From Escherichia coli (GTDB lineage Bacteria; Pseudomonadota; Gammaproteobacteria; Enterobacterales; Enterobacteriaceae), in NCBI RefSeq assembly GCF_030384885.1, contig NZ_CP128613.1: a stretch of 64,000 bases of DNA; one strand, 5' to 3'. The notes beneath the pieces are model-generated. The model was given only the letters and a program-made list of their open reading frames with translations. It was not told where the DNA came from and did not search any database. This document shows positions 4,943 through 42,274 of this stretch, piece after piece. Each line of letters begins with the position of its first letter. Within the stretch, counting starts at the first letter, position 1. Made by a program: the position numbers and the translations under genes.

Positions 4943-8295
<3,353 letters not shown>

Positions 8296-8730: not shown

Positions 8731-9232
8731 AACCTGTTCCTTATTCTGTGAACTTCAGGTGACATTAAAGCTTTACTCCTAATGGAGAATCGACGCAATC
8801 CCAACTCAGTCAAACAGGTAAATATTAGTGTGATTATTAGTAAATACAATTAATCAATCACTCTCGGTGATCATATGATTTCAACTGTAATTATAAGAAA
8901 ATATTGTACTGATTCTCCATATTAAACAAGTGGTTAATATATCTAAAACATTTTGTTAACATTAAGTGGGTTGTTGCCTGTCTTTGCCTTTAATCAGTTT
9001 ATTGTGTTGTAAGTGCCTGTTTGTAAATAGATTAACTGATTTTGGATTTGACCAATTATTTATAGCAGATGATTATTTACGGTGAGTTATTTTAACTGTG
9101 CGAAACATCTCATTTCGATTATTACGGTTTCACTTTTGCTTACCATCGGTGTGAAAAACTTTTTAACAGATTGAAATACACCCAAAACAAAAGTATGACT
9201 TATACATTTATGTTAAGTAATTGAGTATTTTA

Positions 9233-9248
9233 TGTGATCTGCATCACA
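9233..9248. promoter_or_regulatory. CRP site of the flhDC class I promoter (TGTGATCTGCATCACA)
   Basis: Perfect CRP consensus palindrome about 270 bp upstream of the flhD ATG, consistent with the known CRP activation site centred near -72 of the flhD promoter. Confidence 0.75.
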
Positions 9249-9314
9249 CATTATTGAAAATCGCAGTACCCCTCCGTTGTATGTGCGTGTAGTGACGAGT
9301 ACAGTTGCGTCGAT

Positions 9315-9512
9315 TTAGGAAAAATCTTAGATAAGTGTAAAGTACCCCCTCTATTTGTAAGGACCTATTAAACCCAATAAGGTGGGGGCTGTTTTATTGC
9401 AGCTTATCGCAACTATTCTAATGCTAATTACTTTTTACCGGGGCTTCCCGGCGACATCACGGGGTGCGGTGAGACCGCATAAAAATAAAGTTGGTTATTC
9501 TGGGTGGGAATA
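9315..9512 (+). promoter_or_regulatory. Long flhDC 5' untranslated leader (approximate)
   Basis: Established knowledge: the flhD transcript starts about 198 nt upstream of the ATG; the CRP site spacing here fits a start near 9312-9315; boundaries approximate. Confidence 0.45.
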
Positions 9513-9863
9513 ATGCATACCTCCGAGTTGCTGAAACACATTTATGACATCAACTTGTCATATTTACTACTTGCACAGCGTCTGATTGTTCAGGACAAAG
9601 CGTCCGCAATGTTTCGTCTCGGCATAAATGAAGAAATGGCGACAACGTTAGCGGCACTGACTCTTCCGCAAATGGTTAAGCTGGCAGAAACCAATCAACT
9701 GGTTTGTCACTTTCGTTTTGACAGCCACCAGACGATTACTCAGTTGACGCAAGATTCCCGCGTTGACGATCTCCAGCAAATTCATACCGGCATCATGCTC
9801 TCAACACGCTTGCTGAATGATGTTAATCAGCCTGAAGAATCGCTGCGCAAGAAAAGGGCGTGA
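9513..9863 (+). CDS. flhD: Flagellar master regulator subunit FlhD (116 aa; alternative GTG start at 9504 gives 119 aa)
   Basis: [29 protein letters not shown]... matches remembered FlhD; track ORF starts 3 codons earlier at a GTG. Confidence 0.93.
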
Positions 9864-9865
9864 TC

Positions 9866-10444
9866 ATGAGTGAAAAAAGCATTGTTCAGGAAGCGCGGGA
9901 TATTCAGCTGGCAATGGAATTGATCACCCTGGGCGCTCGTTTGCAGATGCTGGAAAGCGAAACACAGTTAAGTCGCGGACGCCTGATAAAACTCTATAAA
10001 GAACTGCGCGGAAGCCCACCGCCGAAAGGCATGCTGCCATTCTCAACCGACTGGTTTATGACCTGGGAACAAAACGTTCATGCTTCGATGTTCTGTAACG
10101 CATGGCAGTTTTTACTGAAAACCGGCTTGTGTAATGGCGTCGATGCGGTAATCAAAGCCTACCGTTTATACCTTGAACAGTGCCCGCAAGCAGAAGAAGG
10201 ACCGCTACTGGCATTAACCCGTGCCTGGACATTGGTACGGTTTGTTGAAAGTGGATTACTGCAACTTTCCAGCTGCAACTGCTGCGGCGGCAATTTTATT
10301 ACCCACGCTCACCAGCCTGTTGGCAGCTTTGCCTGCAGCTTATGTCAGCCGCCATCCCGGGCAGTAAAAAGACGTAAACTTTCCCAGAATCCTGCCGATA
10401 TTATCCCACAACTGCTGGATGAACAGAGAGTACAGGCTGTTTAA
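9866..10444 (+). CDS. flhC: Flagellar master regulator subunit FlhC (192 aa)
   Basis: [27 protein letters not shown]... with zinc-binding cysteines near the C-terminus; ATG at 9866. Confidence 0.93.
10375..10401 (+). promoter_or_regulatory. Sigma-28 (FliA) promoter TAAACTTT-N11-GCCGATAT inside the flhC 3' end (motA/MotR promoter)
   Basis: Close match to FliA consensus TAAAGTTT-N11-GCCGATAA read in sequence; position fits the known motA class III promoter. Confidence 0.7.
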
Positions 10445-10502
10445 CTGATACGGTGTGGCGAAACATTCCAGCAGCGGTAACGACGTACCGCTGCTTTTTT
10501 TT
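10409..10502 (+). ncRNA. motR: Probable MotR small RNA (motA 5'-leader-derived, sigma-28 dependent); boundaries approximate
   Basis: Sigma-28 promoter at 10375-10401 followed about 70 nt later by an intrinsic terminator gives a roughly 95-nt transcript, as reported for MotR. Confidence 0.45.
10471..10502 (+). terminator. Rho-independent terminator downstream of flhC (3' end of MotR)
   Basis: Stem gcagcggta/taccgctgc, loop acgacg, followed by T8. Confidence 0.8.
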
Positions 10503-10570
10503 GCCCCAATCGCGCGTTAACGTCTGACGACTGAACATCCTGTCATGGTCAACAGTGGAAGGATGATGTC

Positions 10571-11454
10571 GTGCTTATCTTATTAGGTTACCTGGTTGTT
10601 CTCGGTACAGTTTTCGGCGGTTATCTGATGACCGGTGGAAGCCTTGGAGCACTCTATCAACCCGCTGAACTGGTGATTATTGCCGGTGCAGGGATTGGGT
10701 CGTTTATCGTCGGCAATAATGGCAAAGCGATTAAAGGCACGCTGAAGGCGCTGCCGTTACTATTTCGTCGCTCCAAATATACCAAAGCAATGTATATGGA
10801 TCTGCTGGCTCTGCTTTATCGGTTGATGGCGAAATCGCGGCAGATGGGGATGTTTTCGCTGGAACGCGATATTGAAAATCCCCGTGAGAGCGAGATCTTC
10901 GCCAGCTACCCACGCATCCTTGCGGATAGCGTCATGCTTGATTTTATCGTCGATTATCTGCGCCTGATTATCAGCGGTCACATGAATACCTTCGAAATTG
11001 AAGCCCTGATGGATGAAGAGATTGAGACGCACGAAAGCGAAGCAGAAGTCCCAGCGAACAGTCTGGCATTGGTCGGGGACTCACTTCCGGCGTTTGGTAT
11101 TGTCGCGGCTGTGATGGGGGTCGTTCACGCGTTAGGTTCAGCCGATCGTCCTGCCGCCGAGCTGGGGGCGCTTATCGCACATGCGATGGTGGGGACTTTC
11201 CTCGGTATTTTATTGGCTTACGGATTTATTTCCCCATTAGCGAGTGTTTTACGTCAGAAAAGCGCCGAAACCAGCAAAATGATGCAATGCGTGAAAGTCA
11301 CACTGCTTTCTAATCTGAACGGTTACGCACCGCCTATCGCCGTTGAGTTTGGTCGCAAAACGCTCTATTCCAGCGAACGTCCGTCGTTTATTGAACTGGA
11401 AGAGCATGTGCGTGCGGTGAAAAATCCGCAACAACAGACGACAACCGAGGAAGC

Positions 11455-11458
<4 letters not shown>
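10571..11458 (+). CDS. motA: Flagellar motor stator protein MotA (295 aa, GTG start)
   Basis: (V)[22 protein letters not shown]...; four-helix membrane protein; matches remembered MotA. Confidence 0.95.
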
Positions 11459-14960: not shown

Positions 14961-14987
14961 TAAAGTTTCCCTCCTTCTTGCCGATAA
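14961..14987 (+). promoter_or_regulatory. Sigma-28 (FliA) promoter of the tar-tap-cheRBYZ operon, TAAAGTTT-N11-GCCGATAA
   Basis: Exact match to the FliA consensus 32 nt upstream of the tar ATG. Confidence 0.85.
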
Positions 14988-40716: not shown

Positions 40717-41319
40717 TTATACCGCCTCAGTCAATTCAGGCTGAGGCGTTTCTACTCCCTCCGCATGAATCAACACCAAACCCGGATGATGCCACAAACT
40801 GGCTGGTGTTACGGTTTTACGCTCCCACGGAATCGAACCTAAAAACCAGAATTTCCAGAAAGTGAGTTTTGCGTTCGGATTGCTATTTAGCAGTTCTCCA
40901 AACGTCTCTATTTCACCCACCGGAATACATAACGCCTCTTTATAAATATCAAAAACGAATTTTGAGCAGAACTGGCGGGAAGATTCGTATTTAAAGCCGG
41001 TGTGGTAGAGCTTATGCAACCGTCCGGGGACCTTTTCGACCAGAGCAAGTTTTTGCTCTGCGGTTAAACCTCCTGCGAGGCGGCGAACACCGTAGCGTTG
41101 ATCGGTCGACCGTTCAATAAATCGTGACAAAGTTGTGATTGTGGAGAGCGGAACTCGACTCTCCGCAACCAGGTAATCATCACCGTCATGTCCGATGATT
41201 ATCCCCACATGGTTGCTCCAGCATTTCGAGGCTGCAGAGATTTGCCCAAACAGGCGAGCACCGATGCAGGTAAAAACAATATCACCGGTTTCATATTTAG
41301 CTGGGTAATTTATTTTCAC
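40717..41319 (-). CDS. yebB: Uncharacterised protein YebB (200 aa)
   Basis: [46 protein letters not shown]...; convergent with ruvC with 1 nt between the stop codons. Confidence 0.88.
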
Positions 41320-41412
41320 TATATCAATCCATTATTTATATATAAAACAGCATCTATCTTTCGTGATGGTAAAGCATTAGCATTGTATTATAATAATGAC
41401 AAGGAATGTTTT

Positions 41413-42237
41413 ATGCGGTTATTTATTAATGTGATAATTATAGTTTCGATCAGTCAATGCGTGAATGTATTTGCTCAAGATAATGTCATCCGCTATCCCT
41501 GGCGATATGGACGTATTTCTTTAAATGAGAATAATGAGTTTGTGCCTCAAATTATTCATATGCGTGATGATATCTACGGCGTGGGTGAAGCTGGTGCAAG
41601 CCTTAACGATGCGAGAATGGCGCAAAGTGGTGTCGCCGTGAGGCTTAGCGTTATACAGCAGGGGCAGGTGGTGAATGCTTTACTGGATTTCTACAATAGC
41701 AATAATCAACCTGCTTATATCTTTGAAGGTGGTTTGATGCCTTGCAATAAAGCCTTTGACATCACAACAAGCAACATTGTCCTTGATGGGATGTGTGGAA
41801 TTTATGATGGGGTCGATGGCTGGCAAGTTATTCCTGCGGGTGATCATTATAAAGAATCATTTTCACTCACTCAGGCTTTTGAATTTCTGCCGGGAAAACA
41901 TCATTATAAAATTAATGCCGGAAGTTTTATCATCAGAGTCGGGGATGATATTTTTGCAAGAGAGGACGCCGAAAGCATTCTTTTTGATTTGATTAACTGG
42001 CGATATGGCTATGTGCTAAAAAGTTATGAAAGGGTGTCGAAGTGGGATTTAATGGCAGGGACTTATGTACTGCCTGAATACTCGGGGGATAAAAGAATGG
42101 ATGAGTATCGAATTTACTCAAACCAGGTGTCGATTGATCTTAATGGTGACGAGTTAGCACATACGGAGTCCTATCAGTGGCGAATTGATAGCGGAATGAT
42201 CCCGGAAAAATTCAGCGTTCAGGAACTCGCTGAATGA
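41413..42237 (+). CDS. Hypothetical secreted/periplasmic protein (274 aa), function unknown; first gene of an AT-rich islet
   Basis: Track ORF 41188-42237 trimmed to the ATG at 41413 because the upstream part overlaps yebB on the opposite strand and 41413 has an RBS (AAGGAA); N-terminus MRLFINVIIIVSISQCVNVFA|QDN looks like a Sec signal peptide; hand-counted G+C about 38-40%; no recognised family. Confidence 0.65.
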   Translation: MRLFINVIIIVSISQCVNVFAQDNVIRYPWRYGRISLNENNEFVPQIIHMRDDIYGVGEAGASLNDARMAQSGVAVRLSVIQQGQVVNALLDFYNSNNQPAYIFEGGLMPCNKAFDITTSNIVLDGMCGIYDGVDGWQVIPAGDHYKESFSLTQAFEFLPGKHHYKINAGSFIIRVGDDIFAREDAESILFDLINWRYGYVLKSYERVSKWDLMAGTYVLPEYSGDKRMDEYRIYSNQVSIDLNGDELAHTESYQWRIDSGMIPEKFSVQELAE

Positions 42238-42274
42238 ATCGTCCTCTACCTGCTTGCCAGATACAGAGGCGCGG

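Follow-up and report, generated by a model that had tools for sequence, protein, structure and literature searches.

The motR locus of an Escherichia coli genome: a sigma-28 promoter inside flhC, a terminated leader RNA and a natural seed polymorphism

Introduction

In Escherichia coli K-12, the small RNA MotR originates in the motA 5′ UTR, from a promoter within the flhC coding sequence that also serves motAB-cheAW (Melamed et al. 2023, eLife 12:RP87151, PMC10578931). Northern blots show a band of about 95 nt that is strongly reduced upon fliA deletion, together with longer bands attributed to terminator read-through, and the RNA co-immunoprecipitates with Hfq (PMC10578931). K-12 MotR forms RIL-seq chimeras with its targets, pairs inside the coding sequences of rpsJ (S10) and fliC, elevates the levels of S10 and flagellin and increases the number of flagella (Melamed 2023, PMC10578931). 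A chromosomal 3-nt seed mutation that leaves the neighbouring genes undisturbed, motR-M1 (nt 46–48), results in fewer flagella and lower flagellar promoter activity in K-12 (Melamed 2023, PMC10578931). Proof of the pairing model is incomplete, because a compensatory rpsJ mutation failed to restore MotR binding in K-12 (Melamed 2023, PMC10578931). S10/NusB-dependent read-through is a further published idea, and a speculative one (PMC10578931).

The promoter is also represented in a FliA ChIP-seq dataset, in which the motif TAAACTTTCCCAGAATCCTGCCGATATT was assigned to '(flhC)motAB-cheAW' and motA RNA fell from 302 to 1 upon fliA deletion (Fitzgerald et al. 2014, PMC4183435). RefSeq places the ncRNA motR (b4828) of MG1655 at 1977208..1977302 on the minus strand of NC_000913.3, with a length of 95 nt and an overlap with the end of flhC.

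Here we compare the corresponding locus of a 64,000-nt stretch of E. coli DNA (the window) with K-12 MotR, with Enterobacterales relatives and with other complete E. coli genomes. Coordinates are positions in the window, on its plus strand unless stated otherwise. The locus is E. coli motR, which is already known, annotated and published; the natural polymorphism in its seed is the sole item of some value that we find there.

Results

The genes of the region run in the order uspC (minus strand), flhD (9513–9863), flhC, motA, motB, cheA, cheW and tar. The flhC coding sequence spans 9866–10444, as given by the open reading frame list and by the RefSeq annotation of CP027579.1, which is identical over this stretch, and a sigma-28 (FliA) promoter lies entirely within it, at 10375–10401. 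The −35 element TAAACTTT (10375–10382) and the −10 element GCCGATAT (10394–10401) were identified by sequence reading, by motif search and from the published FliA ChIP-seq motif, and direct reading gives the 11-nt spacer between them as cccagaatcct (10383–10393). Measured against the sigma-28 consensus TAAAGTTT-N11-GCCGATAA, the pair TAAACTTT-N11-GCCGATAT scores 14 matches out of 16. Window bases 10375–10402 are identical to the ChIP-seq motif TAAACTTTCCCAGAATCCTGCCGATATT.

Allowing at most two mismatches, a search of the 64-kb window on both strands gave the sigma-28 motif twice where 0.03 occurrences are expected, and none of the shuffled sequences attained two matches; at most three mismatches gave four matches against 0.47 expected. 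The second of the two closer matches is a perfect TAAAGTTT-N11-GCCGATAA at 14961–14987, 32 nt upstream of tar (15019). This is the tar promoter, a classic FliA promoter; its spacer is unlike that of the K-12 tar promoter in Fitzgerald 2014 (PMC4183435). A sigma-28-like motif with three mismatches, TGAAATTGCACCAGATCGAGCCGATAA, is found within otsA (7140–7166, minus strand); the same sequence is the '(otsA)' entry of the FliA ChIP-seq list, a weak intragenic site that carries a score of 2 and is without associated regulation (PMC4183435).

Alignment of b4828 to the window identifies the 95-nt MotR at 10408–10502, with 93 of 95 positions identical, no gaps and two substitutions (T for A at 10456, nt 49 of the RNA; A for C at 10461, nt 54). 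The promoter, the first 48 nt of MotR, the terminator and the U8 tail are identical to those of K-12. Identity with the K-12 ends places the putative transcription start on the A at 10408, 7 nt past the −10 element. The published 5′-phosphorylated cloning primer ACAACTGCTGG... fixes +1 at the same base, and the 3′ end of the published T7 template corresponds to 10502 (Melamed 2023, PMC10578931); the MotR* change of TGC at positions 6–8 also agrees with a start at 10408. The first 37 nt of MotR (10408–10444) are flhC coding sequence. Folding of the 95-nt RNA gave a minimum free energy of −28.7 kcal/mol (z = −2.4) and a centroid structure dominated by the terminator hairpin.

That hairpin (10470–10495), detected by a terminator scan and by folding, has a 10-bp stem with arms AGCAGCGGTA/TACCGCTGCT, in which 6 of 10 pairs are G-C, and a 6-nt loop. 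It begins 69 nt past the −10 element and 26 nt past the flhC stop codon, and so is also positioned as the terminator of the flhDC operon. The T8 tract at 10495–10502 contains the termination point, as judged from the sequence and from the 3′ end of b4828, and by analogy with K-12 it is likely to form the Hfq proximal-face binding site. The initial annotation, made from the sequence of the window, had proposed a sigma-28 −35/−10 pair at 10375–10401 inside flhC and, about 70 nt later, an intrinsic terminator at 10471–10502, still upstream of motA. The promoter has held up and so has the position relative to the motA GTG at 10571, and the terminator was placed correctly to within 1 nt. The same annotation had likened the arrangement to that published for MotR and had named alignment with annotated MotR as a check beforehand; the coordinates coincide rather than falling elsewhere. 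Its phrase that the RNA is made from the motA leader is the published wording and gives one possible description of the geometry, because nt 1–37 of MotR belong to the flhC coding sequence and the hairpin lies where it could end flhDC transcripts.

The rest of the motA 5′ leader (10503–10570) would be transcribed only by read-through of the terminator, and a motif search at up to three mismatches turned up no further sigma-28 motif in the interval from the terminator to motA. The motA gene (10571–11458, GTG start; open reading frame list and annotation) is the first of motAB-cheAW and shares the promoter. Within the leader, a hairpin predicted at 10526–10573 pairs CAUCCU (10536–10541) with AGGAUG (10560–10565) and GACGA with the surroundings of the motA GUG start, and it would occlude the motA ribosome-binding site. 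We set this candidate aside: its fold z-score of −0.84 is not significant and RNAalifold returned no consensus structure across 45 species. The 45 nt preceding motA are invariant within Escherichia. A 45-aa open reading frame on the minus strand (10401–10538), which overlaps the terminator and is without supporting evidence, was considered spurious. On the other side of flhDC, the uspC–flhD spacer (8731–9512, 782 bp) is without an insertion of IS size; in MG1655, IS1H sits 306 bp upstream of flhD, and an antisense RNA, AsflhD, is annotated across the 5′ end of flhD.

Of 5426 complete E. coli genomes, 5376 hold MotR, and 5368 match bases 10300–10600 of the window across 80% or more of that length. 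Two of 5378 MotR matches in the genome collection fall on plasmid-labelled records. Strain 2013C-4282 is among those 100% identical over bases 10300–10600, and its gene coordinates coincide with those of the window over at least 50 kb. PGAP lists zero RNA genes in a 50-kb stretch of CP027579.1, where motR is unannotated; PGAP-annotated E. coli genomes such as this one miss motR. Rfam 15 has no MotR family, hence a scan of 9000–11000 gave no covariance-model match to it. The only hit in the same interval, a minus-strand match to a group II intron model that falls below the gathering score (17.9 bits versus 36, E = 0.95), was rejected as chance.

Elsewhere in the window, a low-GC islet at about 41100–43100, between yebB and ruvA, has 38–46% GC versus about 53% in its flanks. 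Two open reading frames in it (41188–42237 and 42275–42859) encode hypothetical proteins of 349 and 194 aa, for which neither Pfam nor PADLOC gave a match. Just 19 of the 5426 complete E. coli genomes carry a 1.9-kb stretch of the islet, and only that of 2013C-4282 matches it with 100% identity.

To compare the locus across Enterobacterales, 80 loci were retrieved through FlhC. All 80 have the promoter TAAACTT(T/A)-N11-GCCGATAn over the same flhC codons, and in 79 it is followed by (A/T)CAACTGCTGGA, with a variant in one Serratia locus (L082). Among 70 ungapped flhC genes from 70 species, a set that excludes the Serratia loci, the synonymous sites of the codons CGT-AAA-CTT and GCC-GAT are invariant and the 11-nt spacer varies, even in amino acid. 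Mean entropy at the third codon position is 0.25 bit in the promoter codons, compared with 1.20 across the remaining flhC codons (Mann-Whitney p = 9e-4). It is lower still, at 0.09 bit versus 1.20, in codons 182–187, which correspond to MotR nt 2–19 (10409–10426). The synonymous sites of these codons (CAA-CTG-CTG-GAT-GAA-CAG) are near-invariant also in the Pectobacterium and Brenneria loci that are negative for the terminator, and the constraint therefore bears on the leader or early transcribed part rather than on the sRNA alone. Codons 182–187 also contain the published site of MotR*, an up-mutation at nt 6–8.

The terminator has a narrower distribution. A core GCAGCG...CGCTGC, usually GCAGCGG...CCGCTGC, followed by six to nine T (usually T8) is present in 71 loci, all from Enterobacteriaceae or Erwiniaceae, and lies 58–65 nt past +1 in 70 of them and at 86 nt in the other (L068). 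In a set of 64 non-identical sequences, each of the seven core stem pairs (GCAGCGG/CCGCUGC) reaches at least 90% conservation, five being invariant, and the inner three pairs covary through compensatory changes. The terminator scan found no such element in eight of nine Serratia, Pectobacterium and Brenneria loci; the Brenneria roseae locus (L075) instead shows an A/T-rich hairpin of another kind with five T's after it, and this was not counted as a terminator. A separate scan of one Pectobacterium and one Serratia locus likewise found no terminator before motA. Escherichia, Citrobacter, Salmonella and related genera retain the seed core GGUGUGG.

Both differences from K-12 fall in the seed. 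The stretch predicted by RNAduplex to pair with rpsJ, ACGGUGUGGCGA (MotR nt 43–54, 10450–10461), contains the two substituted positions as well as the M1 site (nt 46–48, 10453–10455). For K-12 MotR, nt 43–54 are predicted to form 12 contiguous pairs with rpsJ CDS 141–152 at −22.4 kcal/mol, a site that matches the published '~+150' footprint in rpsJ. The window allele, U49/A54, is predicted to form 6 + 4 pairs around a U-U mismatch at −15.1 kcal/mol. Predicted energies for U49/C54, for the A49/A54 combination and for the M1 mutant are −18.7, −18.8 and −10.3 kcal/mol, respectively. Since the rpsJ site (CDS 117–176) is identical in 5405 of 5425 genomes, nothing in rpsJ compensates for the window seed. 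In the corresponding calculation for fliC (−70 to +220) against MotR nt 31–62, each allele, and even M1, chose another site at a similar energy (−17 to −21 kcal/mol), which leaves fliC pairing without a favoured site.

The seed is polymorphic within E. coli. Over MotR nt 36–66, 1135 genomes (21%) match the window exactly, 588 (11%) depart from it at one position and 3651 (68%) do so at two; 2897 genomes carry the K-12 allele unchanged over all 95 nt, and the O157:H7 allele is U49/C54. GGUGUGG is the sequence in E. albertii, Citrobacter and Salmonella, and also in L004, a divergent representative labelled E. coli. The full U49/A54 allele is common to the window, E. albertii and L004, and Citrobacter and Salmonella share U49. 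Because these outgroups carry GGUGUGG, their sequences indicate that the window allele is ancestral and that the experimentally studied K-12 allele, A49/C54, is derived. Along the series from U49/A54 through U49/C54 (O157:H7-type) to A49/C54 (K-12-type) the predicted energies are −15.1, −18.7 and −22.4 kcal/mol, each derived substitution increasing the predicted complementarity to the rpsJ site.

Discussion

The geometry of the locus and its identity with MotR can be read directly from the window. We are highly confident that it comprises a sigma-28 promoter in flhC, a terminated MotR sRNA and read-through into motAB-cheAW. By analogy with K-12, RNA polymerase carrying sigma-28 (FliA) would recognise TAAACTTT-N11-GCCGATAT in the last 70 nt of flhC and begin transcription at A10408. 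Some transcripts would end at the hairpin and U8 tract (10470–10502) as the 95-nt, Hfq-binding MotR, and the remainder would pass the terminator to give motAB-cheAW mRNA. In K-12, nt ~43–54 of the sRNA pair within the rpsJ and fliC coding sequences, and S10, flagellin and the number of flagella rise. Sigma-28 dependence, Hfq binding, read-through and function in trans in the window strain are thus carried over from K-12, and we expect them to apply there.

Retention of the GGUGUGG core across genera would be needless if promoter and terminator acted purely in cis, with the hairpin serving as flhDC terminator and motA attenuator and the 95-nt RNA being a by-product in the window strain. A cis-acting role of that kind would account for a terminator 26 nt past the flhC stop, the spot expected of an flhDC terminator. 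It would also accord with a promoter older than the terminator, given that Pectobacterium and Serratia keep the former and show no intrinsic terminator, and with the poorer predicted pairing of the window-strain seed with rpsJ. In K-12, however, MotR binds Hfq and forms RIL-seq chimeras, and motR-M1 lowers flagella number and flagellar promoter activity. We therefore regard a purely cis-acting locus as very improbable and favour a terminated sRNA that acts in trans in addition to read-through. Chance co-occurrence of a sigma-28-like motif with a hairpin and T run can be dismissed: terminator-like hairpins are generally frequent (10 versus 3.4 expected in a scan of 3 kb), but 0.03 motif matches are expected at up to two mismatches, the promoter's synonymous sites are invariant in 70 species, and the sequence is identical both to a FliA site mapped by experiment and to RNA that is already annotated.

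The distribution of the two elements bears on how the locus was assembled. From the presence of the promoter in all 80 loci and of the terminator in a subset, we infer that the oldest role of the promoter was probably transcription of motA, and that the terminated sRNA was a later addition in Enterobacteriaceae and Erwiniaceae.

The order of the seed alleles raises the further possibility, which we put forward tentatively and consider on balance rather doubtful, that the rpsJ (S10)-activating arm of K-12 MotR is a recent, lineage-specific gain. Were this true, MotR in the window strain and in about one-fifth to one-third of E. coli would target more weakly or differently than in the model strain. 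The set of targets known from K-12 may not carry over unchanged to the window strain, and conclusions on MotR and rpsJ drawn from K-12 may fail for B2, O157 and other lineages, and for other Enterobacteriaceae. Within-species variation in MotR is absent from the main text of Melamed 2023, nor did a search of the literature turn up any account of it. The EPEC RIL-seq supplements (PMC8550237) contain no MotR–rpsJ chimera among the rows listed; motR is annotated in that dataset and barely expressed, with a mean count of about 0.7, so these data are uninformative on the allele question.

Small RNAs derived from 5′ leaders by premature termination form a general class, which includes the riboswitch-derived SreA and SreB of Listeria. 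As in MotR, a short terminated leader acts in trans and read-through gives the mRNA. Fold analysis of the motR locus detected no ligand-sensing element or alternative antiterminator structure, unlike in the riboswitch-derived SreA and SreB. Within E. coli, the sigma-28-dependent, Hfq-binding sRNA UhpU likewise has its FliA promoter within a coding sequence (uhpT) and likewise ends at the terminator of its host gene (PMC10578931). Unlike MotR, UhpU is a 3′-UTR sRNA without a downstream operon for read-through, and its promoter is poorly conserved, in contrast to that of motR (PMC10578931). The locus in the window agrees with motR of K-12 MG1655 (b4828) in position, from the flhC 3′ end to upstream of motA, and in promoter, +1, terminator and 95-nt length, and it is set apart from it by the two seed substitutions, U for A at nt 49 and A for C at nt 54.
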